The notes beneath the pieces are model-generated. The model made no database searches. It saw nothing but the letters and a program-made list of their open reading frames with translations, and was not told where the DNA came from. DNA of 64,000 nucleotides, taken from contig JBGPDC010000003.1 of the NCBI GenBank assembly GCA_041482115.1, positions 4,695-68,694 on the forward strand. Reading direction: 5' to 3'. Positions 31,068-51,844 of this stretch are shown piece after piece. Origin of the DNA: Terriglobia bacterium (GTDB lineage: Bacteria; Acidobacteriota; Terriglobia; Bryobacterales; JACQDG01). A program made the translations under genes and the position numbers. Positions within the stretch are counted from its first letter, which is position 1. Each line of letters opens with the position of its first letter.

Positions 31068-31070
31068 CCA

Positions 31071-32741: not shown

Positions 32742-32772
32742 TTTTTTGATTTCGGTCAGTGAGGAGAATACT

Positions 32773-33329: not shown

Positions 33330-33349
33330 CGCACCGGAAGGAGGTGGAC

Positions 33350-33541: not shown

Positions 33542-33649
33542 CTCCCGTCTTGACCACTAACCCTCAGGCGGCTGCTGGTGTCCGGTACGCAGGGGACGCT
33601 GCCAGCGGCCGGTAAGGCGGGAGCATCCCGCAGGAAAATGGGAGTTTAA

Positions 33650-33844: not shown

Positions 33845-34059
33845 AACTGTTGTGGGACGTCGCCACGTGGTTGGAGAGCTGGCTGCAGGCCGTAGCAGGC
33901 AGCCAGCGGTGGTGGCAATTCTGAATCGTAGGGGAACATCCCCCGGTTCCCCCGCGGTCAGATGGACAGTGGGGCAGGCATGAGGCAAGTAGGCAGGCAG
34001 GTAAGCGAGAATCAGGCGTCCGGCGGCCGCATGGACCGCGGGACGGGAGCAGGTGAGAT

Positions 34060-34944
34060 ATGAACCGACGGTTAATGACCGTACTTGGGTTTGCATTTTT
34101 GGTGGCCCTGGGAGCGACGTTCCTGCTTTACGGGCTGATCGCGAGCCGGGTGCGGGGGAGCAATCAGCCGGTGGCGAACCAGCAGTTGATAGTCGCGGTT
34201 CGCGATTTGCAGCGCGGTGAGCTGATCAAAGATGCGGACCTCAAGACGGTAGCGTGGGGCTCTTCCGAATCGCCTAAAGGATCTTCTGCCGATCGCAATC
34301 TTCTCGTCGGGCGCGGCGTTATCAGCGAGATCGTCGCCGGCGAGCCTATCATCGACTCCCGGTTGGCGCCGAAGGATTCGGGCGCGGGCCTGGCGCCGGC
34401 GATTCCGATCGGCAAGCGGGCGGTCGCGCTCCGCGTCAACGATGTGGTGGGTGTCTCCGGCTACGTGCTGCCGGGCTCGCGCGTGGACGTGCTGATCACC
34501 GGCAATGCCCCCGGGCAGAACCCGCAAGGACCCGAGATCCGGACCATCCTCCAGAATGTGGAGGTGCTTTCGGCGGGCACGAACATCCAGCGCGACGCCG
34601 AGGGCAAGCCGATCCAGGTGCCGGTGATCACGGTGCTGGTGACGCCGGAAGACGCGGAAACGTTGAGCCTGGCGAGCAACGAGACGCGTATCCAACTGGT
34701 GCTGCGCAATCCGCTGGACGACCAGAAGGGGGAGTCGAAGGGCACCGCCGTGGGACGGCTGTTCAAGGGCGGGCCCGCGCCGGAAGACAAGGGGCCGCGG
34801 CGTCCGGCCGCGCCCAGGACGGTGGTGGTGAAGGCGCCGGAGCCCCCGCCGCCCCCGCCCCCCCCGCCGCCCATCGTGGTGGAACTGTTGAAGGGACCGA
34901 CGCGCAGCAGCCAGAATTTTGAGCCGGCGCCGGTAGCGCCGTAA
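34060..34944 (+). CDS. cpaB: Flp pilus assembly protein CpaB/RcpC
   Basis: N-terminal TM segment, SAF-like region (VAVRDLQRGELIKDADL), and RcpC beta-clip region (AVALRVNDVVGVSGYVLPGSRVDVL...VTVLVTPEDAETLSLA). Pro-rich tail. Confidence 0.9.
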   Translation: MNRRLMTVLGFAFLVALGATFLLYGLIASRVRGSNQPVANQQLIVAVRDLQRGELIKDADLKTVAWGSSESPKGSSADRNLLVGRGVISEIVAGEPIIDSRLAPKDSGAGLAPAIPIGKRAVALRVNDVVGVSGYVLPGSRVDVLITGNAPGQNPQGPEIRTILQNVEVLSAGTNIQRDAEGKPIQVPVITVLVTPEDAETLSLASNETRIQLVLRNPLDDQKGESKGTAVGRLFKGGPAPEDKGPRRPAAPRTVVVKAPEPPPPPPPPPPIVVELLKGPTRSSQNFEPAPVAP

Positions 34945-34983
34945 CGGACTGGGAGGCTGACGAGTGACGACAAGGAGCGCCGC

Positions 34984-36420: not shown

Positions 36421-37583
36421 GACCCATTAGCGCCGCACTGGTCGTGGAGCGGCAGGCTTTCCGCACGCAGGTACTGGAGGAGTTGAAAGCCGCCCCAGTG
36501 CGGATCGTACTCGACCAGGGCGCTTTCGGCGCCTGGCAAGTCGTGCAGGAAAAGCTCCAGCGGCTGGCGCCGGACGTGGTGGTGGTGGACCTGTCGGATC
36601 AAACCGAAGACCGGTTTGAGTGCATCCGCCGGCTGCGGACGCTTTCTCAACCGCCCGCGGTAGTGGTGATCCACGATTCCGACGAGGCCGCGGTAATTCT
36701 GAAGGCCATGCGGGCTGGGGCGACGGAGTTCCTGACGGTGCCCCTGGAGGCCGGGAGTCTGCAGACGGCGCTCGATCGCATCGCCGCGCTGCTGCCGGGC
36801 CGGGAGGTCCACAGCGAGTCGGGAGGCCAGGTGCTGGCGTTTCTTTCGGTGAAGGGCGGGGCTGGCGCCACGACACTGGCTTGCGGAACGGCGGCCGTGC
36901 TCGGCAAGGGGGCCAGCCGGGAGGTCCTGCTCGCCGACCTCGATGTCGAAACCGGCAACGTGGCGTTCGCGATGAAGGCCAACTCGCACTACAGCATCCT
37001 GGACGCCTGTCGCAGTATCAGCCGGCTGGATGCGCACTACTGGAAGGGCATTATCTCGAACGGCCTGCCCGGCCTGCACATCCTGACGGCGCCGGCCGAC
37101 CCGCGGGCGATCGAGACCCCCCAGGGCGTGGAAGTGCGCCAGGTGCTGAACTTCGCGCGGACCCTCTACCCCTTCAGCGTCATTGACCTGCCGAGCCACC
37201 TCGGCCCGCTGACGCTGGCGGCGCTCGAGGACGCGGACCGGGCCTTCCTGATCACGACCACGGAACTACCCTCCCTGCACCTGGCCAAGCGGACCCTGCA
37301 GATGCTCTCCTTCCAGGGCTACCCCCAGCAGCGCCTGGCCCTGGTGCTCAATCGCGCTACGCGGCGGGATGAGGTGACCACGGAGGACATCGAGCGCAAC
37401 CTGGGCGTGCCGGTGTTCTGGCGGTTTCCCTTCGATGCGGAAGGCGTCAACGAGTTTTATGTGAAAGGCGGGACGATCGGGCCCAAGTCGGACCTGGGCC
37501 GGTCGATCCGCCAGTTTACGGAAAAGATCTCCGGCGCCCCGGCGCCCGCGGAGAAGACGAAGAAGTCGTTCCTAGGTATCTGA
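36417..37583 (+). CDS. cpaE: CpaE/TadZ: receiver-like N-domain fused to a MinD/ParA-type ATPase
   Basis: The TTG start overlaps the cpaC stop (TTGA) and lies after AGGAGG. Deviant Walker A VKGGAGATT. REC-like N-terminal part (VVVVDLSD...). Confidence 0.85.
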   Translation: MRPISAALVVERQAFRTQVLEELKAAPVRIVLDQGAFGAWQVVQEKLQRLAPDVVVVDLSDQTEDRFECIRRLRTLSQPPAVVVIHDSDEAAVILKAMRAGATEFLTVPLEAGSLQTALDRIAALLPGREVHSESGGQVLAFLSVKGGAGATTLACGTAAVLGKGASREVLLADLDVETGNVAFAMKANSHYSILDACRSISRLDAHYWKGIISNGLPGLHILTAPADPRAIETPQGVEVRQVLNFARTLYPFSVIDLPSHLGPLTLAALEDADRAFLITTTELPSLHLAKRTLQMLSFQGYPQQRLALVLNRATRRDEVTTEDIERNLGVPVFWRFPFDAEGVNEFYVKGGTIGPKSDLGRSIRQFTEKISGAPAPAEKTKKSFLGI

Positions 37584-37623
37584 CGACTGGGCAGTGGCGG
37601 GATGAAAACGCGAGGAGGCCATT

Positions 37624-38976
<1,353 letters not shown>

Positions 38977-38983
38977 AGGAGCT

Positions 38984-39952
38984 ATGTTTTCCACTCTGCT
39001 GGTTGTCGCGTTCCTGGTGGTGTTCGGCATGGTGCTGATCGCCGCCTCGCTCGCCTGGAATGTTACCGAAAGAAAGCGGCAGCGCGTGCTGGACAAGCGG
39101 CTGCAGCGCACGCTTGCCGAGATGACCGAGGTGGACACCGACCTCCTCAAGAAGAGCTCCGCCAGCGAGGTGGAGTTCTATGGCAAGCTGCTGGACCGAT
39201 TTTCGTTCACCGCGACCCTGCAGGATCAACTGGCGCAGGCCAACATGAAGTGGTCGGTGGGCTTCCTGGTCGGACTCATGCTGGTGAGCGGGCTTTTAGC
39301 TCTCAACATTCTGATGCGGGTCCGTTACGTGCCGGGCTACCTCGTTCCCCTGGGAGTGGCGGCGGTGGGGTTCCTGCCCTACTGGGTGGTGCTGCGGAAG
39401 CGTACCCGTCGCCTGGCCCAGTTCGAGGAGGAATTCCCGGAGGCGCTGGACTTTCTGGCGCGCGCCATGCGGGCCGGCCACGCCTTCTCCATCAGCCTGG
39501 AGCTGCTCTCGCAGGAGTCGCCCGACCCGCTGGCCACGGAGTTCCGGCAGGTGACGGAGGAGCACAATCTGGGCTTGCCGCTGGAGGCCTCGCTCGTGAA
39601 CCTGGCGCGGCGCGTGCCGCTGCTCGACGTGCGGTTCTTCGTCTCGGCGGTCATGCTCCAAAGCCGGACCGGCGGCAACCTCAGCGAGATCCTGATTAAG
39701 CTCGGCTACGTAATTCGCGAGCGGTTCAAGTTGAAGGGACAGGTCCGGGCGCTGAGCGCCCAAGGCCGCCTGACCGGCAAGTGCCTGGCGGTGATGCCGA
39801 TCGTCGTGGTCTTACTGATGATGGTTGTGAATGCCGAATACATGCGCGGACTGTTTGACTTCCCTTACGGCCGGCATCTTATCGGAGCGGCCGTCATCTT
39901 GCAGTGTCTGGCTTTTTACGTGATCCGCCGGATCGTCGACATTAAGGTGTGA
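38984..39952 (+). CDS. tadB: TadB inner-membrane platform protein (T2SSF domain)
   Basis: ATG at 38984 lies after GAGGAG. EEFPEALDFLARAMRAGHAFSISL is a T2SSF signature. 3-4 TM segments. Confidence 0.85.
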   Translation: MFSTLLVVAFLVVFGMVLIAASLAWNVTERKRQRVLDKRLQRTLAEMTEVDTDLLKKSSASEVEFYGKLLDRFSFTATLQDQLAQANMKWSVGFLVGLMLVSGLLALNILMRVRYVPGYLVPLGVAAVGFLPYWVVLRKRTRRLAQFEEEFPEALDFLARAMRAGHAFSISLELLSQESPDPLATEFRQVTEEHNLGLPLEASLVNLARRVPLLDVRFFVSAVMLQSRTGGNLSEILIKLGYVIRERFKLKGQVRALSAQGRLTGKCLAVMPIVVVLLMMVVNAEYMRGLFDFPYGRHLIGAAVILQCLAFYVIRRIVDIKV

Positions 39953-39959
39953 TGTCATC

Positions 39960-40895
39960 ATGCTGATGGTCATTATTGCGTTGTGGTTTGTGGCGGTGCT
40001 GGGCGCCATTTCGTGGGTCGGATACCGTTACTGGGTCAAGCCGGCGGCCTACCTGGACCGTGTCGGCGGCGAGGGCGGCGCAGTGGCCGTCGAACTCGAT
40101 GATCATGACCCGGCTCCCATGACCGGGGTCACCAGGATGATGCGGCAGGTAGGGGAGTCGGTTCCGACCAACCCCGGCGCCTTGCGCCAGAAGCGCAAGC
40201 TGCTCATCGCCGCGGGTTACCGCTCCGATTCGGCGGTGGCCGTGATGTACGGCCTCCAAATTGCCTGCGGAGTAATGCTGGGCCTGCTGACCGCCGTCGC
40301 CCTCACCAGCACCCGGGTCCTCTCGCCGCCGCAAGCCCTCGGGGCCGGTATCCTGGTCGGGCTGTTGGGCTACGCCCTGCCCAACGAGATTCTGCGCCTG
40401 CTGATTCAGCGGCGCCGGCAAATCTTGCGGCATTCCCTGCCCGACGCGCTCGACCTGCTGGTCATCTGCGTGGAATCCGGGCTGGGTCTGGATCAGGCGC
40501 TGCAAGAGGTTTCTCAGGAGCTGCTCTTAACTCACCGCGAGCTCAGCGAGGAGCTGGCGCTGGTGAACTACGAACTGCGCGCCGGCAGCCGGCGGTCCGA
40601 GGCGCTGCGCAATCTGGCCTCCCGGACCGGCGAAGGGGAGATCAAGAAGCTGGTGGCTATTCTGATCCAGACCGACCGCTTCGGCACCTCCATCGCCCAG
40701 GCGCTCCGGACCCACGCCGACTTCATGCGGGTGCGCAGGCGCCAGGTGGCCGAGGAAAAGGCCAACAAAGTGGGCGTCAAGCTCGTGTTTCCGATCTTCT
40801 TCTTCATTCTGCCTTCGATGTTCTTAGTGACGGTGGGCCCGTCGCTGCTCTACCTGTTGTTCGAGTTCCTGCCGAAGATGAAGCAGGGCTTGTAG
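39960..40895 (+). CDS. tadC: TadC inner-membrane platform protein (T2SSF domain)
   Basis: LPDALDLLVICVESGLGLDQAL is a T2SSF signature. TM segments at both ends. Confidence 0.85.
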   Translation: MLMVIIALWFVAVLGAISWVGYRYWVKPAAYLDRVGGEGGAVAVELDDHDPAPMTGVTRMMRQVGESVPTNPGALRQKRKLLIAAGYRSDSAVAVMYGLQIACGVMLGLLTAVALTSTRVLSPPQALGAGILVGLLGYALPNEILRLLIQRRRQILRHSLPDALDLLVICVESGLGLDQALQEVSQELLLTHRELSEELALVNYELRAGSRRSEALRNLASRTGEGEIKKLVAILIQTDRFGTSIAQALRTHADFMRVRRRQVAEEKANKVGVKLVFPIFFFILPSMFLVTVGPSLLYLLFEFLPKMKQGL

Positions 40896-40943: not shown

Positions 40944-41039
40944 ATGGACTCCACGACAGTCCGGGTGATATGCGCCGTTCTGGCGGTGCTGCTGTTGGCT
41001 GTTATCGTGATGCGTCGACGAGGGAAGAGAGAGGAGTAA
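40944..41039 (+). CDS. Unannotated 31-aa single-TM micro-protein candidate downstream of tadC
   Basis: My own translation: GGAGGA lies 3-4 nt upstream of ATG at 40944. MDSTTVRVICAVLAVLLLAVIVMRRRGKREE, then TAA at 41037-41039. Below the ORF-track size cutoff. Confidence 0.35.
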   Translation: MDSTTVRVICAVLAVLLLAVIVMRRRGKREE

Positions 41040-41157: not shown

Positions 41158-42282
41158 GTGGCACCAGGAAGTGTAGTGCGCCCGCGGTCCGTCGCGGCAT
41201 TAACCTGGGTTGCGGCTGGGCTCTTGGCTGGCTTCTGGCTCGGGGCCATCTTTGGGGCGGCCGCTCGCACCGGCGACCCGGGCGACTTCTCGGCGTTCTA
41301 TGGCGGAGCTAGAGTGCTGCGGACCGTAGGACCCCGGGCCCTCTACGATTTTCCCGCCATGGAACGGATCACCCGGGCGTCCTTTCCCGGCCCCTACGCC
41401 GTTCTTCCTTTCATTCGGCCTCCTTTCTACGCCCTGCTGCTCCAGCCGCTGGCGGTGTTACCGCCTCACGCGGCACTACTTGCTTGGCTGGTGTTGAATG
41501 CCGCGGCCTTGCTCGGGAGCGTCTTTCTCCTGGCCGGCGTCACCGGCCGGGAGGCGCCGGTAGTTGCCTGGCACGCGGCGATCTTCTTTCCGGCCCTGGC
41601 CGCCTTTTTCAACCGGCAGGACGTGCCGCTACTGCTGCTGGCCGCTACCCTGGCCTATCGGCTGTTGAACCGTGGCCGGCCGTTCGCTGCCGGCTTGGCG
41701 CTGGCCGCCTGCACCGTCAAGTTTCACCTCGGGCTGTTGCTCCCGCTTGTCCTGGTGGTCCAGCGGAGTTGGAGGCTGCTAGCTGGCCTCGCGGCGGGAG
41801 CGGGTGTCGCCCTGGCGCTGTCCTTGCTCTTGGTAGGCCCCAGTGGCTGCTGGGGGTATGTCCGGATGCTCTTCGAGCGCACGGCGCCCAATATCGAAAA
41901 CTATCCCGAGCGGCAAGCGAACCTCTCCAGTGTGGCGCGCGACTCGGGCCTGGAAATTCCGCTGGTGCTGCTCACTGCCGCGGCGGCCGCCGCCGCCGGC
42001 CGGCGGCTCCAGGCTCGCGAAGCGCTCGCGGCCGGCTGGCTGGGATCCCTGGCCATCGCGCCGCACGCGGTGATCTCTGACTACCTCCTGGCCCTTCCGG
42101 CCCTGCTGCTGCTGGCCCCGCTCGGGCGCGCCTGCTTTGTGCCTGGCGTGCTGCTACTTTTTCCAGTGGTTCCCCTGCTGCTGGTATGGGACGAGCGACT
42201 GATCGGATTGGCCCCCTTGCTGGCCCTCGCTTGCCTGCTGGGGGCGGTGATCCACGGCAGTTCGCGCCGGAGTGAAGTGTGA
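41158..42282 (+). CDS. GT87/DUF2029-like polytopic membrane glycosyltransferase
   Basis: Multi-TM protein. N-terminal loop GDFSAFYGGARVL...LYDF parallels the paralogues at 13852 and 45552. Confidence 0.55.
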   Translation: MAPGSVVRPRSVAALTWVAAGLLAGFWLGAIFGAAARTGDPGDFSAFYGGARVLRTVGPRALYDFPAMERITRASFPGPYAVLPFIRPPFYALLLQPLAVLPPHAALLAWLVLNAAALLGSVFLLAGVTGREAPVVAWHAAIFFPALAAFFNRQDVPLLLLAATLAYRLLNRGRPFAAGLALAACTVKFHLGLLLPLVLVVQRSWRLLAGLAAGAGVALALSLLLVGPSGCWGYVRMLFERTAPNIENYPERQANLSSVARDSGLEIPLVLLTAAAAAAAGRRLQAREALAAGWLGSLAIAPHAVISDYLLALPALLLLAPLGRACFVPGVLLLFPVVPLLLVWDERLIGLAPLLALACLLGAVIHGSSRRSEV

Positions 42283-43652
42283 AGCGCGCGGCGGCGCCAC
42301 CTCTCTCGACGCGACGGGCGGGCATCCTGATATTCATCGCCTGCCTGTTGCTCTATAACCTGAACCACCAATACCGAGGCACAGCCGACACGGCGCCCAA
42401 TGTCTACCTGCCGATCAGCATCCTGCTCCACGGCGACCTGTACCTGGACCGCTACCCCACCCTCCCTGGAACCCAGCCCGGGCCGCCCTATCCTTACTAC
42501 CTCCAGCCGTTTCACGGCCGGTTGATCTCCTCCTTCCCACCCACCCCGGCGTTGGTGGCTCTGCCCGTCTACCTGGTGCCGGCGCTGTGGCTCCGCGCCT
42601 CTCACACCCCTTACACCAGTGAAACTTTTTATCTCGTCTGCGTCACCGCGGCCAAACTGGCGGCGGCGGTGATCGCGGCAGCCGCCGTGGTGGTGGTGTT
42701 TCTGACGCTCGCGCCGCCGCTCGGCGTACCGCGGGCGCTGCCCCTCGCGCTGCTCTTTGCCTTTGGCACCTCGGCATTTCCAATTGTGAGTCAGGGGCTG
42801 TGGAGTCACGGGCCGGCGATGTTGTTTCTGGCGGGGGCCGCCTACCTGTCGTTGCATCAGCCCCAGCGGGTCGCGGCGCTTGGAACTCTGCTCGGCCTGG
42901 CCGTGGCCTCTCGCCCGCCGGCAGTGGTTCCGGCGATAGTCTTTGCCGCCTGTGCCGCCGCGCGAGACCCTCGACGCCTGTTGCAACTCCTAGGGGCCCC
43001 GCTTCTGATCGCAACCGGACTCGCAGCCTACAACTACCATTTCTTCGGCTCGGTTAGCGGCGGATATGAGCAGGTGAACCGCGCCGTCCTGGAGCGCCAG
43101 CAACTGACCGCCTTGTGGACCGTTAACCCCGGCCCAGCTCTGGCCGGTCTGCTCGTCAGTCCCAGCCGCGGCCTGCTGATTTTCTCGCCCTTTGCAGTGG
43201 CTGCCTTCGCCGGTCTCTGGCGGACTCTGCGCGACCCGCGCTGGTCGGAGTGGAAGCCAGTGGGACTCTCCGTAGCCGGCTACCTGCTGTTCTTCAGCTT
43301 CTATACCGGCTGGTGGGGCGGCATGTGTTACGGGCCGCGCTACCTCACCGACGTTTCTCCCTTCCTGGTGCTGTTGCTCGTCCCCGTCTGGCAGGATCTG
43401 CAGGCCGTCCGCTGGCGGCGGCTGGGATTTCATCTTTTGGTTTGGACCAGCATCTTCATCCAGACCCTGGGCGCCATGATGTGGGACGGGGAGTGGTACA
43501 TCCGGCCCACTCACGTAGACGTCGATCACGCCCGGCTGTGGGATTGGAAGGATTCCGAGATCACGCGGCTCCTCCGGAATTATCGCTGGTCGCAGACCTC
43601 TTCCCAGGTGCCGGCCTTCGGCGGGCCCTCGCCGGATCAATCTCGTGAGTAG
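42279..43652 (+). CDS. Polytopic membrane protein, GT-C-like (weak assignment)
   Basis: 4-bp overlap with the upstream gene. More than 10 hydrophobic segments with an N-terminal loop (GTADTAPNVYLPISILLHGDLYLD). No soluble catalytic domain. Confidence 0.45.
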   Translation: MKRAAAPPLSTRRAGILIFIACLLLYNLNHQYRGTADTAPNVYLPISILLHGDLYLDRYPTLPGTQPGPPYPYYLQPFHGRLISSFPPTPALVALPVYLVPALWLRASHTPYTSETFYLVCVTAAKLAAAVIAAAAVVVVFLTLAPPLGVPRALPLALLFAFGTSAFPIVSQGLWSHGPAMLFLAGAAYLSLHQPQRVAALGTLLGLAVASRPPAVVPAIVFAACAAARDPRRLLQLLGAPLLIATGLAAYNYHFFGSVSGGYEQVNRAVLERQQLTALWTVNPGPALAGLLVSPSRGLLIFSPFAVAAFAGLWRTLRDPRWSEWKPVGLSVAGYLLFFSFYTGWWGGMCYGPRYLTDVSPFLVLLLVPVWQDLQAVRWRRLGFHLLVWTSIFIQTLGAMMWDGEWYIRPTHVDVDHARLWDWKDSEITRLLRNYRWSQTSSQVPAFGGPSPDQSRE

Positions 43653-43655
43653 GCG

Positions 43656-45449
43656 GTGCTGACCAATCCAGTGGCGGCTCCCTTGCCGCCCGCCGTTCAC
43701 GCGCCGCCGGGCACCGGCCGCGGCGATATCCTGGCGCGGGCCGCGATCGTCGTGGCGTGGCTGCTGCTCGGGTGCCTGACCTGGGGACACTGGGGGGAAG
43801 TGGCCCGCTACGACACCGGTCGCGAGATGTACGTGCCCTACGCGATGCTGCAGGGCAAGGCGCTCTATAAAGACCTGTGGTACACCTATGGCCCCCTCGC
43901 TCCCTGCTGGAATGCGCTGTTGTTCGCCGTGTTCGGCAGTCGGCTGGAGGTGCTTTACGCTTCCGGGCTGACGCAGGCCCTGGCTTTCGCGCTGCTGCTC
44001 TATGCCATCGCGCGGCGGTTTCTGCCGGTAGCGGCCGCGTCGCTGGCGGCCGGCTGCTTTCTGCTGCAGGCTTTCCAGCCCGACCTCTTCAACTTCGCGC
44101 TGCCCTACGCGCACGCCGCCACGCTGGGGGCCCTGTTCAGTCTTTGCACGCTCTACGGTTTGGTCCGTCACGTCCTGCGGGAGCCGGGGCCGAATCTGGC
44201 GGCGGCCGGGATGGCGGCCGGCCTGGCCCTGCTCACCAAGCAGGAGTTCGGGGCGGCGTGTTATTTGATCCTGGGCTTTGTGCTGGTCCTCGAGGCCCGC
44301 AGTCAGCGCTCCGCCGGCCGGTTGTTCGGGGGCCTGTGGCGCTGCCTGCCGGGCCTGCTGGTCAACGTCGCCGTGTATGGCTGGCTCGCCTGGCGGCTGA
44401 CGCCGGCCGCCTTGTTTCTCGACAATCTCAACACGCCGTGGTCCTATCACATGCGCGCGGCAGGAATGCCATGGCTGGCGCGCAACGGCTTCCGCTTTCA
44501 GCCCCAGGAGATGCTGGCCGCTGCGTTTAGCGGGCTGATCTCTCTGGCCTTGTGGTTCCTCGTGGCGGCGCTCCTCGAGCGCCTGCTCGCCTGGCGCGGG
44601 ACCTTGCCGGTGGCGGGCCTGTCGGTGATCGCCTTCGGGACCGCCGCTCATCTGAAGGACTGGCCTCTGGCCGGTGCTCTCTTTTTAGGGGTCCCGCTGC
44701 TGTTCTTCCCGATGGGCCTGCCGTGGCTGGCGGCGGGCTTGCTCGCGGTGTCGCTGTTGGAGTGGCGGCGCGACCACCACCCCCGCCACCTGGCAATTGC
44801 GGTGCTGTGCCTCTACGCCCTGGCGATCGGCCTGCGGGTTCTGTTTCTCACGCTGCCTGTCTACTATGGCGTCTATCACAGTCAGGCGTTGTTCCTCGTC
44901 TTCCTCATTCTGCTCACCCGTTTGACGGGCCACATGGGCCGGGCCTTTCCGGCTATCCTGGTACTCGAAGCGGCCGGACTGCTGGCGGCCGTGGCTCCGC
45001 GCCCCTCCAGCCTGCCCGCGCCCCTTCACACCGCGCGCGGCACGATTTACGCTGGTTCCTCCGAGGCGGCGGTTTACAAGCCGCTTCTCGCTTTCCTCGC
45101 GGAGCAACAAGCTCACGGCCGGACGTTCGTCGTGCTGCCGCAAGAGGTATCGCTCTACTTTTTCACCGGAACGCTGGCGCCCAGCCGCTGGTTCGGGCTG
45201 ACCCCTGGCACCCTAGCCCCCGAGGCGCGACAGCAAGACTACATCGCGGATCTCGAACGGTACAACGCCGACTTCATCGTCGTCTCCAACCGTGACACCA
45301 AGGAGTACGGCCTGCCCTACTTCGGCCTCGACTACGACCGCGCGGTCTATGCCTGGATCCTGCAGCATTACGAGCCCGCGGGAGAATTCGGACGCTTCGT
45401 CCGCGACGTTCCGGGCGCTTACGGCGTGCGCATCTATCGCCGGCGATGA
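43656..45449 (+). CDS. Polytopic membrane protein, GT-C (ArnT/PMT-like) with C-terminal soluble domain
   Basis: Starts 3 nt after the upstream stop. First-loop motif YDTGREMYVPYAMLQGKALYKDLWYTYGPL, many TM segments and a roughly 130-aa C-terminal non-membrane domain. Confidence 0.5.
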   Translation: MLTNPVAAPLPPAVHAPPGTGRGDILARAAIVVAWLLLGCLTWGHWGEVARYDTGREMYVPYAMLQGKALYKDLWYTYGPLAPCWNALLFAVFGSRLEVLYASGLTQALAFALLLYAIARRFLPVAAASLAAGCFLLQAFQPDLFNFALPYAHAATLGALFSLCTLYGLVRHVLREPGPNLAAAGMAAGLALLTKQEFGAACYLILGFVLVLEARSQRSAGRLFGGLWRCLPGLLVNVAVYGWLAWRLTPAALFLDNLNTPWSYHMRAAGMPWLARNGFRFQPQEMLAAAFSGLISLALWFLVAALLERLLAWRGTLPVAGLSVIAFGTAAHLKDWPLAGALFLGVPLLFFPMGLPWLAAGLLAVSLLEWRRDHHPRHLAIAVLCLYALAIGLRVLFLTLPVYYGVYHSQALFLVFLILLTRLTGHMGRAFPAILVLEAAGLLAAVAPRPSSLPAPLHTARGTIYAGSSEAAVYKPLLAFLAEQQAHGRTFVVLPQEVSLYFFTGTLAPSRWFGLTPGTLAPEARQQDYIADLERYNADFIVVSNRDTKEYGLPYFGLDYDRAVYAWILQHYEPAGEFGRFVRDVPGAYGVRIYRRR

Positions 45450-45551
45450 CCATCGCCGTGAGCCTAGCCGGACGCCGCCTATACTGACGTGTTGCGCCTT
45501 CACTAACGCGAGAGGGTCACCTCTCTAGCGCGACTCAGCTACACTAAGAAC

Positions 45552-46685
45552 TTGCACGCAGAGGGAGTCGAGGCTTCTCCGGCATATTTGCGACCTCCAC
45601 CTCGGAGAGCCAGTCGGGCCCTGTGGGCGGTATGCTTGGTGGCCTTTCTGGCTTTTGCCTCCCTCTGGGCCTCTCACGCCCGGACGTACCGGGAAATGGG
45701 CTGGGACTTCACGATGTTTTACGTCGCCTCCCATCTTCCCGCGGGCCAGCTCTACAACCGGACGGCTTATCTGGAAACGGCGGAGCGCCTTCTGGGTGGC
45801 TCCGAGGTCAAATACTTCCCTCCTTACATCCGGCTCGCCATCTTCGCGCTGCCCTTGAGGCCCCTGGGCTGGTTTTCTTACAAGAATGCTTTTCTCATTT
45901 GGACCGCCATCCAATTTGGCTGTTATCTCGCAAGTCTGTTCCTGCTGCGGTCGATCTACCCTTTCCCCCCCGAGGCGCTCCTCGGTTGGGCGCTATTCTA
46001 TCCTTCCATGCATGGCATCTGGCAAGGACACGACGAATCCGCCCTGCTGCTGCTGGTTGTCGTGGCTTTCTTTCTCTTGAAATCCGGCCGCGAAAAGCTG
46101 GCGGGCGTCCTGTTCGCTCTCTGCGCCTACAAGTTTAATTTGTTCGTTCTTATCCCCCTTTATCTCCTGATCCGGCGGCAATGGCAGGCCCTGGGGTATG
46201 GGATCGGAACCACGGCGATCCTGGTCGGTGTTTCTTTCTCCCTCCAATCCCCCCGGACCTACTTCGATTATCTGAAGCGTGTGCCCGAGATGAGCATTAA
46301 CTTTGATCCCGCCTCTATTACCAGCCTGCGAGGCCTGACACTGGGGCACCCCTGGCTATACGGGGTCACCGTAGTGGCGGTCGTGCTTCTGGCGTTATGG
46401 GCGATATCGGTGACGGACGAAACTTCCGGATTCGCCATAGCCATAACCGGCTCCTTGCTGATCGCCTACTATACGTTCTATTACGATCTGACGCTGCTCG
46501 CCATTCCCATTATGGTGATCCTGGCGAAAGGGGGGCGGTGGTCCAGGATAGCTCCATTAACCTTGCTGGTAGGCGTACCCTTATGGTTCGGTCCGCCGCG
46601 CTATATGGCTATCCTGGTGGTGGCGCTCTTGGGAGGCCTCGTGTGTTTGGCACCGTCCGGACCTGACGCGAAGGAATCGTCGTAA
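45552..46685 (+). CDS. GT87/DUF2029-like polytopic membrane glycosyltransferase
   Basis: WDFTMFYVASHLPAGQLYN motif. Multi-TM protein. The TTG start is uncertain. Confidence 0.55.
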   Translation: MHAEGVEASPAYLRPPPRRASRALWAVCLVAFLAFASLWASHARTYREMGWDFTMFYVASHLPAGQLYNRTAYLETAERLLGGSEVKYFPPYIRLAIFALPLRPLGWFSYKNAFLIWTAIQFGCYLASLFLLRSIYPFPPEALLGWALFYPSMHGIWQGHDESALLLLVVVAFFLLKSGREKLAGVLFALCAYKFNLFVLIPLYLLIRRQWQALGYGIGTTAILVGVSFSLQSPRTYFDYLKRVPEMSINFDPASITSLRGLTLGHPWLYGVTVVAVVLLALWAISVTDETSGFAIAITGSLLIAYYTFYYDLTLLAIPIMVILAKGGRWSRIAPLTLLVGVPLWFGPPRYMAILVVALLGGLVCLAPSGPDAKESS

Positions 46686-48265
46686 TGGGCGGCCCCGCCT
46701 CGCGCGAGGGAGCGGCTCTCCCGTGGAATACAGACGCGGATCCCGACGAAAAATGGCTTTACTCGCTAGCTATCCTCTTTGGCATTGGCCTGCGGGTCTT
46801 TCGATTCTGGGGACCCAGCCTCTGGCTGGACGAATTGAGCACCGCGTGGGTGGCTACTGCGCACGGCTGGGAGGCGCTATGGCAGCGGTGCCTGCTGGCG
46901 CACCAGCCTCCTATCTATTTCCTGGTCGTCAAGGCATTCTTACTTCTCGGCCACAATGAGCTTTTTCTCCGGCTGCCCACTATCATCTTCGGACTGGCCT
47001 CTCTGGCGGCTCTGGTAGTGACTATGCGCCGCGTGTTAGGGACGCGCGCGGCCCTGTACGGGGGCGCCCTCTATGCGCTGAACTCCCGGGGTATCTACCA
47101 CGGCCAGGAAGCTCGGATGTACGCCCTGGCTTGGTTTGTTACTCTCGTTTCGATCTATTTCTTCGTCTCATTGTTTGAAGATAGCCAGAGGTGGCGGTGG
47201 CTGGGGTACGCGGCCGCGACCCTGACCGTTTGTTACATCCACATCATCTACATTTGCGTCTTAGTGGGTCAGACCATCGTCGTTCTGTGTTTCTATTATG
47301 TGCTCCAACGCCGTACTCCTATTCTGCGCCGCCTCCTCTGGACCCAAATGACGTTGTTCCTTCTTGCCGCTCCGCTCACGCCCCTGTTGTTTGCCACTGC
47401 GACTGCCAGCAGAGCTTTGGGAAGCTTTATGTCCAAGCCGAACGTAGGCGGATTTTTATACCTCCTTACGTATCCGGAAACTGGCGCAGCGGCAGCCCTC
47501 TTCGTTTTGATTCTTGTCAGGATCTGGGGCCGGCGTCAGGCCTTCGTGGCCCTGACGGAACCAGAGACGGCTTTGGTGGGCGTCGGGATCGTGTATGCCG
47601 CCATGCTTCCTTGTGCTGCGGTGTTAGCCGCCGCCGGTATCGTGAACATTCTGGAGGGAAGATACCTGCTGTTGCCACTCCTCGGCGCTATTATCTCCGC
47701 GGCTTTCGTTGTAGCCAGGGCGAATGACCGCGTACTTCGGCGCGGACTGTGGACGTTTGTCCTGCTGACCGCCATCCTGCAAGGGGCCATCGCGGCGCAG
47801 ATCGGACCCTGGGTTGGAATGCCACGGGAGGACTGGCGCGGCGCTATCGGCTGGATCGGGGAGCGTTATCGAGAAGGCGATCTCATTCTGATGCGTTCGG
47901 GTTTGATCGAGGCGAAGTATCTCTCCCTGGACCTTCCCCAGAATCGGGAATACCTGGGGTTGCCATTGGCCGGCTTCTATGGCCCCGGCGGGCTGAATGT
48001 TGTCAATCTACCGTGGACGGCTGAGGAACTGAACTCGGGCCCGTACCTCCGCGCCTCTCTGCGGGAGAGGATGGGCCGGGCCAGGCAGATCATTGTGGTG
48101 CTGAACTCCCAAACGGTTCCTTGGAGCTGGACGGTATTCGAACAGTGGCTCCAGGAATCCGGCCGCCGGCCCGGATCGAGCGAGAAACGCCAATTTCAGG
48201 TTCTGGAGGTTCGCGTCTATCGCAGTCCGGAGAGCCAATCTGGGGTCTCTGTACCAGCCATGTAG
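46685..48265 (+). CDS. GT39/PMT_2-like (ArnT-type) GT-C membrane glycosyltransferase
   Basis: 1-nt overlap with the upstream stop. SLWLDELSTAWVA acidic first-loop motif, multi-TM region and C-terminal soluble domain. Confidence 0.6.
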   Translation: MGGPASREGAALPWNTDADPDEKWLYSLAILFGIGLRVFRFWGPSLWLDELSTAWVATAHGWEALWQRCLLAHQPPIYFLVVKAFLLLGHNELFLRLPTIIFGLASLAALVVTMRRVLGTRAALYGGALYALNSRGIYHGQEARMYALAWFVTLVSIYFFVSLFEDSQRWRWLGYAAATLTVCYIHIIYICVLVGQTIVVLCFYYVLQRRTPILRRLLWTQMTLFLLAAPLTPLLFATATASRALGSFMSKPNVGGFLYLLTYPETGAAAALFVLILVRIWGRRQAFVALTEPETALVGVGIVYAAMLPCAAVLAAAGIVNILEGRYLLLPLLGAIISAAFVVARANDRVLRRGLWTFVLLTAILQGAIAAQIGPWVGMPREDWRGAIGWIGERYREGDLILMRSGLIEAKYLSLDLPQNREYLGLPLAGFYGPGGLNVVNLPWTAEELNSGPYLRASLRERMGRARQIIVVLNSQTVPWSWTVFEQWLQESGRRPGSSEKRQFQVLEVRVYRSPESQSGVSVPAM

Positions 48266-48286
48266 CCTGGAACCAATCGCCCAAGT

Positions 48287-49990
48287 CTAACGGATTCGCG
48301 CCCCAGCTTCGCTCCAGCCGGCGAGATCGTAGACCTGGACGCCTCCGGTCGGACTGCGAAACACGACGGGCTGCGCTGCCAGTAGCTGCCCCACCCGCTG
48401 CCGGTAGGCGTCTCGCGCTGATTCAAACCGGAAGTCATCTTCCGTAACGACCCAGTAGCGGGCCCCGATAGCGCGAGCGACATCGGCCAGGTGCGTCAGG
48501 TCCTGCTCCCGTATCGCCGGCTCGAGCGACGCCGTGGGACGACAGGCCAAGGGCCACATCGCTTGCCGGCCCGTGTAAAGGTACAAAGCGGCGTCCTGCT
48601 GCGTCACGAACCGCGTATCCAGGCTCGTGTGGTGGCGGACCCAGTCGTAGGTTTCCTGCGCCTCCCGGAGGGAGGCCGTGCGCGGGTCGAGCCCGGCCTG
48701 GACCATCTCAGGGGAGTCCACGAAGTAATGAATCAATCCGCGGGAAAGTACCGCCAGAAGTCCGGCCGTCAGGACGATAATCAACGCCCGATTGAAGAAC
48801 CCGCGGTCGCGGTCCCAGTCGGTCCGGAAGGTGCCCGCCAGATGCCGGCCTTCCCACCACAGTCCGGCATAAAAGAACGGCAAATAGAGCAGCAAGGCCC
48901 GATCGAGGAAGGTGTAGTTCCAGACCAACAGTACGGCAGCATAGAAGGGAAATAGGAAGTGGATCGCCGTCCAGCCCTGGTGGCGTGCCTGACGGATCAG
49001 TCCCGCCAGGATGGCGACCGACAGACAGATGCCCAGTAGGACTCCGGGGTAAGAGGCCAGCCCCCCCCAAGGCGGGAACAGGCAAAACATGGAGGGCGTC
49101 AGCAGGAATCCCCGGAGATTGAACAGGAACATAGCCCACAGCGTGGCGGCGTCGGGTACGGATAGCCGCCAAAAGCCCGAATAGCTGGTGTGATAGAGCC
49201 AGGTCTGCCGGAAGCCCTCCCCCGCTCCTTGCGCCCAGTCCGGCCAGCCCGCCGGAGCCGAGGCCAAGAGCCCCGCCAGGGCCACCAACGGTGTAACGCC
49301 CAGAAGCAGAAAGAGCAGTTGCCGGTACGCCCGCCGATAGAGCGCCAGGGCCACGCACGCCCCCACCAACGTGAATCCGATGGTGCGCGTGAGTACCGCC
49401 AAACCGGCTAGCAGCGCCACGGGGAGGGCCGCTCGGCCGGTGCGCTCCGGCCGCAGGGCGGAGTCCGCTGCCAACGTCCCAGTCAGGGCCAGGGCCATGA
49501 AGGGAATATCGCTCATCACCCGGCGGCTCAAGGCCAGGAAGATCGGATGAAAGGCACACAGGCCGGTGATGAGCACCGAGCCCCAGCGACCCATACCGCC
49601 CAGCCGCCGCAGACATTGAAACGCGGCGGTCAGAAACCAGCAGCAAAAAAGTGCTGTTACGGCGGTGGCGGCCGCGAGATTCTCCGGAAACGAGGGACGC
49701 CACCTCCAGACCCAGGAGAGCAGCCAGGGGTAGAGGGGCGGATACTTGGTTTGCGGCGGTGAGCCCGGCAGGCTGGGCAACACGTATCCACGGCCCTCCG
49801 CCAGGGCCTGGGCCGTGCTGAAATAGATACTATCGTCGTAGAATTCTCCGAAGACTTCGGTGGGGCGTAAACGCGACCAGCAGACCAGGAAGAGCAGCAG
49901 GACCAGCGCCAGTCCCACCCAGGGGAGCAGGTCCTCGCGCTGCTCGGCGCCTCGCGGGCCGGCCCTGGGGCTCGAAGAAGAAAGGGACAC
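48287..49990 (-). CDS. GT39/GT83 ArnT-like GT-C membrane glycosyltransferase
   Basis: EFYDDSIYFSTAQALAEGRGY (DD motif in the first loop) ...YPPLYPWLLSW. More than 10 TM segments and a C-terminal soluble domain. Convergent with the preceding gene. Confidence 0.6.
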   Translation of the reverse strand: MSLSSSSPRAGPRGAEQREDLLPWVGLALVLLLFLVCWSRLRPTEVFGEFYDDSIYFSTAQALAEGRGYVLPSLPGSPPQTKYPPLYPWLLSWVWRWRPSFPENLAAATAVTALFCCWFLTAAFQCLRRLGGMGRWGSVLITGLCAFHPIFLALSRRVMSDIPFMALALTGTLAADSALRPERTGRAALPVALLAGLAVLTRTIGFTLVGACVALALYRRAYRQLLFLLLGVTPLVALAGLLASAPAGWPDWAQGAGEGFRQTWLYHTSYSGFWRLSVPDAATLWAMFLFNLRGFLLTPSMFCLFPPWGGLASYPGVLLGICLSVAILAGLIRQARHQGWTAIHFLFPFYAAVLLVWNYTFLDRALLLYLPFFYAGLWWEGRHLAGTFRTDWDRDRGFFNRALIIVLTAGLLAVLSRGLIHYFVDSPEMVQAGLDPRTASLREAQETYDWVRHHTSLDTRFVTQQDAALYLYTGRQAMWPLACRPTASLEPAIREQDLTHLADVARAIGARYWVVTEDDFRFESARDAYRQRVGQLLAAQPVVFRSPTGGVQVYDLAGWSEAGARIR

Positions 49991-50176
49991 AACGAACTCT
50001 GCCGCCCAGCGGGCCGCGCTGCCATCTTAGCACCCACGTCCGGCGTGCTCCGCCTGCCGCTCTCGTACCGTCTCTGGCCAGGTCTATTCCCCTGTATGAA
50101 GTTTCTCCATTCCAGCGCCGATTAAATCACTGCCGGTCAGCCTCGGCCGTTCCAGGATGCACCTCGACTACTTCGA

Positions 50177-51844
50177 TTGCGACTCGACTGCCCGCCGGAG
50201 GCCGGCGTGAGAAAGCGAGCGGGTCCGGTCCTCCTCCGCATGACGGCCGACGCCCTGTTGGCCTCGGTGGCGCTCGCCGCAGGCCTCGCGATCCGCTTCC
50301 CGCCGCCCGCCGGGCTGTGGCGTAACTTTGCCGCGCCGTATGGCCTCGACCTGCTTTTGCTCGCGGCCCTGGTGATCGGCTCGAACGCCTTCTGCGGCCT
50401 CTACTACCGCACCCGCTTCTATACCCGGCGCTCCAAGGTTCTGGCGCTGGCACAGTCCATTTCACTGGCTTATGCGGCGCTGGTGTGCGTTCTCCCTTTC
50501 ACCAGCCCGCCAGCTCGCAGCCTTCCGGGAACTGCGCTCGTGCTCTCCTACCTCTTCACCCTGGCCACCGTCGGAGGGTCGCGGCTCGGCCGGGACTACT
50601 TCCGCCGCCGCTTTACCCTGGAGCTGCAAGAGCGGCGGCCCGGCCGCGCCGTCCGGCGGGTGCTGGTAGTGGGCGGAGCGGGCTACATTGGCAGTGGCCT
50701 CGTGCGGGACCTGCTGGCCGACGGTTACCGCGTGCGGGTGCTGGACTCGCTCGCCTGTGGTGACGAGGCCCTTCGCCCGCTTTACGGGTGTCCGGATTTC
50801 GAGCTGGTCCAGGGCGATTTCTGCCACGTGGGACCGGTGGTGCAGGCGACCAAAGGCGTCGACGCGGTCCTGCACCTCGGGGCCATCGTGGGCGACCCGG
50901 CCTGCGCGGTCGACGAAGACGAGACGCTTGAGACCAACCTGGCCGCTACCCGCCTGCTGGCCGAGGTCTCGCGCGCAGCGGGGGTTTCGCGCCTCCTGTT
51001 TGCCTCCACGTGCAGCGTCTACGGCGCCTGTGACCACCTGGTCGACGAGCGCTCGCCCCTGCATCCCGTCTCGCTCTATGCCGCGACCAAAATCGATTCC
51101 GAGCGCGTGCTGCTCGCAAAACGCGATTCCCGCTTCCACCCCGTGATCCTGCGGCTCGGAACCGCCTTTGGCTGGTCCCTGCGGCCGCGCTTCGATCTGG
51201 TCGTCAATCTGCTCGCGGCCCGTGCCGCCGTCGAGGGCCAGATCCAGATCTTCAATGGCGGCCAGTGGCGGCCCTTCATCCACGTCGCGGACATCTCCCG
51301 CGCCTTCCGAGCCGTGCTGGCGGCGCCCCTCGCGGTTACCAGCGGCCAGATCTTCAACACCGGCTCGAACTCCCTGAACCTCACCCTGCGGCAACTGGCC
51401 AGTGAAATCGCGAGCCTCGTACCGGGCCTGGAGGTCGCCTATCTCCCCGGCGCCGACACCCGCAACTATCGCGTGTCGTTCGACAAGATCCGCGACCGGT
51501 TGGGCTTCGAGTGCCAGATGGGAATCGAGGCGGGCGTCCGCGAGATCCTGACCGCGTTCGACCGGGGCCAGGTGGCGGACTTCCGCGACCCGCGTTACAG
51601 CAACGTCCAGTTGATCGAGCGCCGTCGCCGGGAAAGGTCAGGACCCCCCGCAGGACCGCCCGCGATCGAGTTGACCGCCTTGCAGTTTGCCCGCAAGAGC
51701 CGCTGGTGGCGCAGCGTCGCCCTGGGCGCCTCGGGAGCCTCTCTGCTGCAGGACCCCGCTAGCGACCTGCTGCATCTGGCGCGAATGGTCGAGCCGGCCA
51801 AGGTTTCCGCTATGGCCGCGGCCTGGGGGCGGGACAGTCTCTGA
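50177..51844 (+). CDS. Membrane-anchored NAD-dependent sugar epimerase/dehydratase (SDR)
   Basis: About 4 N-terminal TM segments, then VLVVGGAGYIGSGL (GxxGxxG) and YAATKIDSE (YxxxK). The architecture recalls CapD/WbpM-type enzymes. Confidence 0.8.
   Translation: MRLDCPPEAGVRKRAGPVLLRMTADALLASVALAAGLAIRFPPPAGLWRNFAAPYGLDLLLLAALVIGSNAFCGLYYRTRFYTRRSKVLALAQSISLAYAALVCVLPFTSPPARSLPGTALVLSYLFTLATVGGSRLGRDYFRRRFTLELQERRPGRAVRRVLVVGGAGYIGSGLVRDLLADGYRVRVLDSLACGDEALRPLYGCPDFELVQGDFCHVGPVVQATKGVDAVLHLGAIVGDPACAVDEDETLETNLAATRLLAEVSRAAGVSRLLFASTCSVYGACDHLVDERSPLHPVSLYAATKIDSERVLLAKRDSRFHPVILRLGTAFGWSLRPRFDLVVNLLAARAAVEGQIQIFNGGQWRPFIHVADISRAFRAVLAAPLAVTSGQIFNTGSNSLNLTLRQLASEIASLVPGLEVAYLPGADTRNYRVSFDKIRDRLGFECQMGIEAGVREILTAFDRGQVADFRDPRYSNVQLIERRRRERSGPPAGPPAIELTALQFARKSRWWRSVALGASGASLLQDPASDLLHLARMVEPAKVSAMAAAWGRDSL

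Follow-up and report, generated by a model that had tools for sequence, protein, structure and literature searches.

A Bryobacterales-type Tad (Flp) pilus cluster of a soil acidobacterium carries seven genes encoding integral membrane proteins that are very probably glycosyltransferases of the GT-C superfamily, and this suggests that its pili receive a sugar coat through an as yet undescribed route. Six of these proteins (G1 to G6) are encoded by an array that follows tadC, and the seventh, X31071, is encoded between tadG and flp, inside the operon and directly 5' of flp, a position that is fixed across the order. It is X31071, which lies outside the coordinates of the preliminary description of the array, that provides the strongest link to the Tad system, and it is proposed to be the pilin-proximal glycosyltransferase. 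We tentatively favor the Tad pilus itself as the target of the GT-C enzymes, which would glycosylate the Flp pilin in the periplasm using polyprenyl-phosphate sugars.

Organization of the tad locus and the adjoining array

The window, meaning the whole 64 kb stretch of DNA that was analyzed, contains the Tad locus immediately 5' of the array, as Pfam searches confirmed. On the forward strand are two pseudopilin genes with Pfam TadE matches, tadE-like (28168-28653) and tadE/F-like (28664-29212), a tadG-like pseudopilin gene (29154-31067; Pfam Tad, PF13400), the gene for X31071 (31071-32741; 556 residues), four flp pilin genes in tandem (32746-32964, 33138-33329, 33344-33541, and 33650-33844) that were recognized by the G/xxxxEY motif in their translations, rcpC (34060-34944; Pfam RcpC), a secretin gene (34984-36420; Pfam Secretin), tadZ (36417-37583; Pfam AAA_31/TadZ_N), tadA (37624-38976; Pfam T2SSE), and tadB (38951-39952) and tadC (39960-40895), both of which match Pfam T2SSF. 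The micro-ORF noticed earlier between tadC and G1 is real (40944-41039, forward strand) and, as read from the sequence, encodes a single-pass peptide of 31 residues, MDSTTVRVICAVLAVLLLAVIVMRRRGKREE.

The seven ORFs that follow have the coordinates and strands previously assigned to them. G1 (41158-42282), G2 (42279-43652), G3 (43656-45449), G4 (45552-46685), and G5 (46685-48265) are on the forward strand, with a 4-bp overlap between G1 and G2 (42279-42282), gaps of 3 nt between G2 and G3 and of 102 nt between G3 and G4, and a 1-nt overlap between G4 and G5, while G6 (48287-49990, reverse strand) is convergent and G7 (50177-51844, forward strand) is divergent. The start codons of G1 and G4 are uncertain because the gene callers used for other assemblies predict G1 as a protein of 368 aa and G4 as one of 329-348 aa.

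Fold and family of the membrane proteins

Each of the six array proteins spans the membrane several times, as shown by 6-9 strong peaks of hydropathy, and profile searches found no GT-A or GT-B domain in any of them, as had been claimed from the letters alone. Their membership of the GT-C superfamily is borne out by Pfam, profile-profile homology, and predicted structure, although the count of six GT-C candidates missed X31071. The family GT87 was correctly named for G1 (82.9 bits), G4 (80 bits), and a paralogue adjoining mutL (13738-15099; 76 bits), all above the Pfam threshold. For PMT_2 the Pfam cut-off is 26.1 bits, which places G5 (36.3 bits) within the family and leaves G3 (25.0 bits), a probable PMT_2-like GT-C with a C-terminal periplasmic domain, borderline and below it. 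G2, G6, and X31071 have no Pfam match of their own, nor was an NCBIfam family found for X31071. G2 matches the NCBIfam LA_3751/2 putative glycosyltransferase model (49 bits) and many of its homologues carry PF13231, consistent with a GT-C family related to ArnT and PMT_2. The G2 family aligns with the G6 family (hhalign probability 95%, E 3.8e-8) and with the N-terminal module of G3, including its first-loop DT (probability 57.5%), and the C-terminal domain of G3 resembles that of G6. The AF2 model of G6 (pLDDT 92.8) retrieved STT3, ArnT, and DPY19 in Foldseek at a probability of 1.00, and also PimE, AftB, and Pmt4, and that of X31071 (pLDDT 88.8, pTM 0.88) retrieved STT3, AftA, AglB, DPY19, PglB, and ArnT at the same probability.

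It is very improbable that these polytopic proteins, all or in part, are transporters, scaffolds, or degenerate GT-C relics and not glycosyltransferases. Such a reading could draw on the sub-threshold score of G3, the missing Pfam matches of G2, G6, and X31071, and the PDB sequence searches with G1, G3, G5, the G2 family, and the X family, which gave nothing significant, but it conflicts with the structural matches of G6 and X31071 at E <= 0.001, all of which are GT-C-fold glycosyltransferases (transporters appear only at probabilities below 0.2), with GT87 scores that are three times the threshold, and with acidic residues after TM1 that are invariant in 47-49 homologues each (D37 in G2, D52 and D53 in G6, and D42 in X31071).

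From its sequence, G7 is assigned as an extended-SDR sugar-nucleotide epimerase or dehydratase (Pfam Epimerase, 150 bits), with intact GGAGYIGS (GxxGxxG) and YAATK (YxxxK) motifs, and among solved structures 6vo6 and PelX (6wj9/6wjb) come closest to it, matching the SDR domain at 125-128 bits. It had been described as a membrane-anchored epimerase, and the Epimerase domain, the motifs, and a hydrophobic N-terminus of 146 residues (in-frame GC3 0.74-0.90) agree with this, but such anchoring is not typical of the family because the orthologues of relatives, which are 60-62% identical with an alignment confined to residues 147-510, have no membrane segment.

A GT-C gene fixed in front of flp

In 78 of the 79 species-representative loci that were informative, a relative of X31071 stands in front of flp-rcpC-(secretin)-tadZABC. 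The X family is large (∼33,000 representative clusters), and its distant members (profile E 1e-41 to 1e-56) include the last gene of GT2-methyltransferase-GtrA-X cassettes on three plasmids; one member has a C-terminal TPR fusion like that of TfpW. The flp genes form a repeat family (D1, 4 copies) whose duplication unit takes in the 3' end of X31071. The mature Flp is of ∼47 residues, begins QDTMEYTLLL, and has a Ser/Thr-rich exposed C-terminal half, a property that does not discriminate since unmodified Flp pilins are also rich in these residues. In the Caulobacter Tad pilus no density for a modification is seen (PMC10710030), which counts against a pilus target.

Might X31071 and the other enzymes bypass the major Flp pilin and modify another periplasmic or membrane component of the locus, such as the TadE/TadG pseudopilins, the 31-residue peptide, RcpC, or the secretin, or else serve general protein O-glycosylation? 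We consider this unlikely. The nearest structural matches of X31071 are indeed protein-modifying GT-C enzymes (STT3, AglB, PglB, and DPY19), its gene has tadG directly before it and flp after it, and a peptide like that of 31 residues is encoded after tadC in 61 of the 68 loci with a tadC match, sometimes in two copies; the short N-terminus of this peptide faces the periplasm, fits the pattern M-(D/N)-x-T, and often contains an N-x-T sequon. However, the peptide of the window (MDSTT...) and those of close relatives lack the Asn, direct reading of the C-terminal domain of X31071 revealed no WWD-type motif, a sequon is present in only 31 of 118 Flp sequences, and the known pilin-adjacent transferases, TfpW and TfpO, modify the major pilin.

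A conserved core and a lineage-specific addition after tadC

G1, G2, G3, and G7, the last through its SDR part, constitute a core module that was appended after tadC in one subclade. Three to four related lineages have this core after tadC, with G1 orthologues (49-53% identity) following tadC in loci L007-L010 and L091-L094 and G3 orthologues at 54% identity, and the order tadC-GT87-G2 is retained where TadC identity is only 58-66%. G4, G5, and G6 were not found in the relatives that keep the core (G4 is absent from L091-L093), and the GC content of G4 and G5 (0.581, with GC3 of 0.70, and 0.596, respectively) is 0.58-0.60 compared with 0.65-0.69 in their neighbors; these three genes therefore look like a later insertion in this lineage only. 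The array had been read as a duplicated module, which did not hold up, as G1 and G4 are 30% identical and the comparisons of G3 with G5 and of G2 with G5 are not significant. Similarly, the proposed adjacency of tadC to GT87/GT-C genes is kept in relatives but is not general in the Acidobacteriota: GT87 follows tadC in 6 of 59 species-representative tad loci of more distant Bryobacterales/Terriglobia, where the usual following genes are an SQHop_cyclase-like gene and DUF362.

The distribution of the array bears on a second reading, which is quite possible if somewhat doubtful, that G1 to G7 make or decorate a glycoconjugate of the envelope that has nothing to do with the pilus (for instance, an exopolysaccharide, a lipoglycan, or an LPS-like molecule) and are beside tad through inherited synteny in one subclade, while X31071 might still be pilus-related. 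Characterized GT87 enzymes act mostly on glycolipids (phosphatidylinositol mannosides and lipomannan), and the substrate of ArnT is lipid A, so that known substrates lean this way and against the pilus. The same is true of the array being missing after tadC in ∼90% of the sampled Bryobacterales/Terriglobia loci, of G2 homologues at 48-50% identity that are not tad-linked, of the Wza-like polysaccharide export (Poly_export) gene that follows G2 in L094, which hints at a polysaccharide, of the swappable behavior of G4 to G6, and of the third GT87 being next to mutL, far from tad. The synteny seen in relatives could likewise be inherited without functional coupling. What this reading does not accommodate well is the tight junction of tadC with GT87, which in L010 share 4 bp at the tadC stop and the GT87 start, the array's lack of the polymerase, flippase, chain-length regulator, and cytoplasmic glycosyltransferase usual for polysaccharide loci, and the recurrence of GT87 and G6-family genes at X-tad cores: 17 of 82 loci have extra genes of these two families no more than 10 kb from the core, variously arranged, with G6-family genes beside X or after tadC in L011, L029, L046, L052, L084, L086, and L089. 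No intrinsic terminator was predicted between tadC and G1.

Proposed pathway of pilus glycosylation

Under the preferred reading, glycosylation of the Tad pilus, the donors would be made elsewhere in the genome, and the window does, as first stated, lack a GT2 polyprenyl-phosphate sugar synthase, a GtrA or Wzx flippase, Wzy, and a cytoplasmic glycosyltransferase. By analogy with the plasmid GT2-GtrA-X cassettes, these donors would be single sugars carried on a monophosphate and not oligosaccharides on a diphosphate. A GT2 synthase would attach each sugar to polyprenyl phosphate, a flippase would turn the product to the periplasmic side, and there X31071 would transfer the first sugar to a Tad pilus subunit, most likely to Ser/Thr of the exposed C-terminal half of Flp. 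Further sugars would then be added singly by the GT87 and ArnT/PMT-like enzymes, a stepwise extension that would parallel actinobacterial protein O-mannosylation, which is begun by a PMT and continued by a GT87. In the cytoplasm, G7 may supply one of the transfer steps by epimerizing a UDP- or GDP-sugar.

Comparison with known systems

The SDR domain of G7, including its GxxGxxG and YxxxK motifs, is like that of PelX/GalE-type enzymes, and its N-terminal hydrophobic segment is reminiscent of WbpM and PglF; from these membrane-anchored dehydratases and from CapD, G7 differs by scoring only 23 bits on Polysacc_synt_2 and by having orthologues free of membrane segments. STT3, AglB, and PglB are the best structural matches of X31071 and G6 (query-normalized TM-score 0.5-0.6, probability 1.00), and AglB glycosylates archaeal type IV pilins; unlike these enzymes, X31071 has a C-terminal domain without WWD and Flp pilins are mostly without N-x-S/T sequons. 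Gtr-type systems, to which ArnC/ArnT are related, combine a GtrB-like GT2, a GtrA flippase, and a GT-C transferase, and it is this GT-C slot that distant X-family members fill in the plasmid cassettes, just as G6 is structurally close to ArnT; however, neither a GT2 nor a GtrA partner is encoded in the window, and known Gtr/Arn systems target O-antigen, teichoic acids, or lipid A and not pilins.

In actinobacteria, protein O-mannose is initiated by a GT39 PMT and extended by the GT87 PimE, stepwise, in the periplasm, and from polyprenol-phosphate mannose (PMC12757957), and the array similarly combines GT87 (G1 and G4) with PMT_2 matches (G5 and, borderline, G3). The actinobacterial genes are dispersed and serve many secreted proteins with no link to a pilus, whereas here, in a Gram-negative acidobacterium, up to seven enzymes are clustered at a Tad locus. 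TfpW, the pilin arabinosyltransferase of Pseudomonas aeruginosa group IV strains, is a GT-C enzyme whose gene adjoins pilA and which glycosylates the type IVa pilin on the periplasmic side, with a polyprenyl-phosphate sugar as donor (bioRxiv 10.1101/2020.04.19.049825). It has a TPR domain and its gene is 3' of pilA, while X31071, which has no curated family model, belongs to a Tad/Flp system, has an alpha/beta C-terminal domain, and is encoded 5' of flp. The likeness is drawn from fold, loop motif, and gene position: both are polytopic GT-C proteins with an acidic first-loop motif, which is essential in TfpW, and both are encoded directly beside the major pilin gene.

The Tad locus and the genes that follow it

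The Tad locus is complete and lies 5′ of the array, with all of its genes on the forward strand: two tadE-like genes come first, then tadG, the four flp pilin genes in tandem, rcpC, a secretin gene, tadZ, tadA, tadB and tadC (39960-40895). The seven genes of the array, G1 (41158-42282), G2 (42279-43652), G3 (43656-45449), G4 (45552-46685), G5 (46685-48265), G6 (48287-49990, reverse strand) and G7 (50177-51844), stand where the preliminary description had placed them and with the junctions that it gave, and all six of the proteins G1 to G6 are polytopic. The micro-ORF of 31 aa that it had noted after tadC (40944-41039) is also real. Past 51844 there are unrelated housekeeping genes, including those for enoyl-CoA hydratase, rhodanese, an ECF sigma factor, accA and dnaE.

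The 64-kb window contains no GT2 synthase, flippase, Wzx/Wzy or cytoplasmic glycosyltransferase, as had been stated from the sequence. Among the scanned ORFs of the tad locus (28168-40895) there was no match to the Peptidase_A24 prepilin peptidase family, a member of which is encoded just 3′ of tadC in two of 59 related loci. A scan for promoters and terminators gave no promoter-like sites, and terminator-like sites occurred within genes only, at a frequency close to chance, a result that is compatible with co-transcription or its absence alike and neither proves nor excludes it. The nearest named relatives belong to the Bryobacterales and the Bryobacteraceae. An exact copy of the G5 protein is present in the MAG GCA_041488195.1 with the gene order unchanged, and an exact-protein look-up returned no database record for G1 or for X31071 (see next section), probably due to differences in the start codon or in a single residue.

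A conserved GT-C-type gene beside flp

The strongest link between a glycosyltransferase and the Tad system is not the array but a gene outside the coordinates of the preliminary description, X31071 (31071-32741), which encodes a 556-aa membrane protein. It starts 4 nt past tadG, stops at 32741 and is separated by at most ~35 nt from the first flp ORF. Among relatives with 39-45% identity, flp-rcpC-(secretin)-tadZABC comes after the gene in 78 of 80 species-representative loci; of the other two, one is cut off by the end of its contig and does not inform on the order, which leaves 78 of 79 informative loci. The pair of this gene and flp is also present in MAGs of the Candidatus Solibacter type (L039 and L053). 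A transferase gene directly beside the major pilin gene and conserved across taxa, which is a feature of the TfpW/TfpO type, is therefore found for X31071.

Searches of Pfam, NCBIfam and the PDB by sequence gave no match to X31071, and its family shows no profile similarity to that of G6. Its predicted structure (pLDDT 88.8, pTM 0.88) nevertheless matches STT3, AftA, AglB, DPY19, PglB and ArnT, each with a probability of 1.00. In the first loop, D42 is invariant and D40 is conserved in at least 90% of 49 homologues, and D42 is also present in five relatives encoded on plasmids. The role of a classical N-oligosaccharyltransferase was set aside as the lead model, and is unlikely, because the WWD motif (WWDxG) was not found in residues 400-556 of X31071 and because just 31 of 118 Flp sequences contain an N-x-S/T sequon.

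In the region 32617-33132, the tandem duplication unit of flp (~360 nt) takes in the last ~125 nt of X31071, and a remnant ORF (32970-33104) duplicates the tail that encodes its C-terminus (repeat families D2 and D5, 81-93% identity). In the database protein P0112, the reading frame of an X-family protein continues into a Flp pilin. P0014 (890 aa) includes a partial X-family copy and a full one, arranged in tandem, and in one locus (L054) two copies stand side by side.

The X family is very large and is without any curated model. It comprises 33,194 representative clusters (defined at 50% identity) at E ≤ 0.001 and 7,811 at E ≤ 1e-30, and among ten divergent members a Pfam domain was found only in one, which is a C-terminal TPR fusion. 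Distant members (profile E 1e-41 to 1e-56) retain the loop D-x-D-x-x-W-H with an invariant D42. A context clue to the function of this unannotated family comes from proteobacterial plasmids, those of Phyllobacterium, Pararhizobium and Sulfuricystis, which carry a GT2-methyltransferase-GtrA-X cassette with X as the last gene. The cassettes (L100, 6772-10431; L101, 6621-11959; L103, 3722-7377) encode GT2, a class I SAM methyltransferase, GtrA and one or two X-family proteins. Three-component periplasmic glycosylation systems have this same layout, which points to polyprenyl-monophosphate sugars as the probable donors of the X family, whereas the GT2 and GtrA partners of such a Gtr-type system were both absent from the 64-kb window.

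Identity of the array enzymes

The assignment of the array to GT87 and other GT-C families in the preliminary description was correct, as judged by Pfam and NCBIfam profiles, hhalign, and Foldseek on the G6 model. G1 and G4 match Pfam GT87 (PF09594, cut-off 25) with 82.9 and 80.0 bits, and the paralogue that adjoins mutL (13738-15099) with 75.8 bits. An Asp residue that may correspond to the essential Asp of PimE is located just after TM1 in G1 (GDFSAFY) and in G4 (WDFTMFY); a phmmer search against the PDB, for a residue-level alignment to PimE, gave no match. With the PMT_2 profile (PF13231, cut-off 26.1), G5 is above the threshold (36.3 bits) and G3 just below it (25.0 bits), and there was no match to G2, G6 or X31071 themselves. 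G2 has no Pfam match and G6 no match to any family, yet PF13231 or PF02366 is present in some homologues of both, and PF13231 in many of those of G2. The families of G2 and G6 are homologous (hhalign probability 95%, E 3.8e-8), and the N-terminal module of G3 and its orthologues aligns with the G2 family, including the first-loop Asp (hhalign probability 57.5%); a profile comparison of G5 with the G6 family gave no signal.

Sequence and profile searches of the PDB with X31071, G1, G3, G5 and the G2 and G6 families yielded no usable match, and only fold comparison was successful. The AlphaFold model of G6 (pLDDT 92.8) matches STT3, ArnT, DPY19, ALG3/12, PimE, AftB and Pmt4, each with a Foldseek probability of 1.00, while the scores of transporters are near zero. 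Acidic residues after TM1 are invariant in the families of G6 (D52 and D53) and G2 (D37), and by the positive-inside rule the first loop that carries them is predicted to be periplasmic. It is highly probable that G1 to G6 and X31071 are GT-C enzymes. Taken singly, the GT87, PMT_2-like and SDR families are ordinary.

G7 is an extended SDR that matches Pfam Epimerase (PF01370) with 150.4 bits, above threshold, and its motifs are intact: GGAGYIGS (the GxxGxxG NAD site), STCSVYG and YAATK (YxxxK). The best relatives of solved structure are 6vo6 and PelX, the latter a UDP-GlcNAc C4-epimerase. Its 146 N-terminal residues (50177-50614) are coding, with an in-frame GC3 of 0.74-0.90, and contain three to four hydrophobic segments; NCBIfam weakly matches this part of G7 to the N-terminal end of EPS sugar-phosphate transferases.

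A core with an insert

The proposal that the array is a duplicated module is rejected on the basis of pairwise comparisons, as G1 and G4 are 30% identical and the comparisons of G3 with G5 and of G2 with G5 are not significant. The array is instead a core (G1-G2-G3-G7) with an insert (G4-G5-G6). The order tadC-micro-ORF-G1-G2-G3-G7 is kept in three relatives at 50-62% identity without G4, G5 and G6. A fourth relative (L094) has tadC-micro-ORF-GT87-G2 and then a Poly_export (Wza-like) gene, which together with a 452-aa ORF cut by the contig end replaces G3 and G7 (both genes within 11391-13747), and in a fifth the GT87 gene overlaps tadC by 4 bp. The GC content of G4 and G5 is 0.58-0.60, compared to 0.65-0.69 in their neighbors. 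As the 385-aa G7 orthologues of L091-L093 are without the N-terminal segment, G7 seems to have acquired its membrane anchor along with the insert.

Three further, independent assemblies of the same organism (L001 from NCBI, L002 from JGI and L003 from Logan) all end ~225 nt past the G5 stop, at window position ~48490 inside the 3′ end of G6, which suggests strain heterogeneity with a variable junction, or a feature that breaks assemblies, at the G5/G6 boundary. A repeat search found no repeats flanking the insert or at this boundary, and a metagenome scan with G5 for the origin of the low-GC G4-G5 pair gave only matches of 29% identity.

Neighbors of tadC in other Tad loci

The tadC-GT87 adjacency does not extend across wider relatives. 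In 59 species-representative tad loci the sequence continues past tadC, by a median of 2.6 kb. Just six of them have GT87 there, a GT87 or other GT-C gene falls within 3 kb of tadC in 16, and the commonest genes after tadC encode a SQHop_cyclase-like protein (29/59) and DUF362 (33/59). G2 homologues of 48-50% identity, in addition, lie away from tad, so the appended array is limited to one subclade. An extra GT87 or G6-family gene was found within 10 kb of the tad core in 17 of 82 loci, on either side and in several arrangements, and GT-C genes, which do recur here, may be enriched near it.

Other genes were observed at this position. In most tad loci of the Bryobacterales/Terriglobia (within L011-L090), a ~290-aa protein with squalene-hopene-cyclase-type repeats and a ~320-aa DUF362 protein are encoded 0.1-2.3 kb past tadC and the micro-ORF, and the next gene in both L011 and L029 encodes a GT-C of the G6 family. 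In seven loci (L020, L066, L069, L074, L077, L084 and L090) tadC is directly followed by a further polytopic family (490-580 aa, 7-10 hydropathy peaks, 33-80% identity between members) with a conserved first-loop motif, CFWQ..IQ.(G/S/N)DL.SH.YNAWL; it has no Pfam or NCBIfam model, and one member weakly matches EpsG (24 bits). The micro-ORF, found in the window and in loci among L004-L090, lies 3′ of tadC in 61 of the 68 loci in which tadC was matched, and in some of them there are two copies in tandem. It encodes a single-pass peptide of ~31 aa with the consensus M-(D/N)-x-T ... W..AG ... RRRKRK and a short N-terminus, often N-x-T, that is predicted to face the periplasm. We know of no described Tad component that resembles it.

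A possible role in pilin glycosylation

Attached to this Tad locus are genes for seven GT-C-type enzymes and an epimerase, and one of the seven has a fixed place in the operon beside the pilin genes. In the proposed mechanism, polyprenyl-phosphate sugars would come from a GT2 synthase and a flippase whose genes lie elsewhere, X31071 would add the first sugar to a pilus subunit, most likely to Ser/Thr in the exposed half of Flp, GT87 and ArnT/PMT-like enzymes would extend the glycan, and G7 would provide an epimerised nucleotide sugar. Mature Flp has ~47 aa, and its exposed half is 28.5% Ser/Thr. There is precedent in TfpW, which is encoded beside pilA (bioRxiv 10.1101/2020.04.19.049825), and in actinobacterial protein O-mannosylation, which combines PMT and GT87 (PMC12757957). 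Against a pilus target is the Wza-like gene after G2 in one relative. Characterised GT87 enzymes, moreover, work mainly on glycolipids. The Tad pilus of Caulobacter also shows no modification (PMC10710030). Overall, the gene arrangement would fit pilin-linked periplasmic glycosylation in which the Flp glycan itself is a prediction, and we consider the Tad pilus a credible target of these enzymes at slightly less than even confidence.

Tad pili are widespread adhesion organelles, and their tiny Flp pilins are generally regarded as unmodified. To our knowledge, pilin glycosylation has so far been known from type IVa and archaeal pili, and a GT-C enzyme fixed in the Tad operon of a dominant soil lineage would bring the Tad class into its range. 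Such an enzyme would also open a first way to the function of a family with tens of thousands of as yet unannotated membrane proteins, and the variable transferases beside the Tad locus would be a model for surface-glycan diversification. What is new is a conserved GT-C enzyme beside flp within a Tad operon, its membership of a very large family that no curated model covers, and the variable GT-C add-ons that flank the Tad locus. In a search of the literature on Tad/Flp glycosylation and on GT-C enzymes with Acidobacteria pili, mostly outside subscription journals, neither such a locus nor a dedicated Flp-modifying enzyme was found.

A more far-reaching and rather unlikely proposal is that X31071 founds a large GT-C family whose Bryobacterales branch is the first dedicated Tad/Flp pilin glycosyltransferase, with GT87/ArnT-like add-ons that lengthen the glycan stepwise in the periplasm, and with lineage-specific inserts such as G4-G6 that diversify the pilus coat. 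In Pseudomonas, variation of the pilin glycan shields the pili from phage, and the diversification of the pilus coat that inserts of the G4-G6 type would bring may be likened to it.
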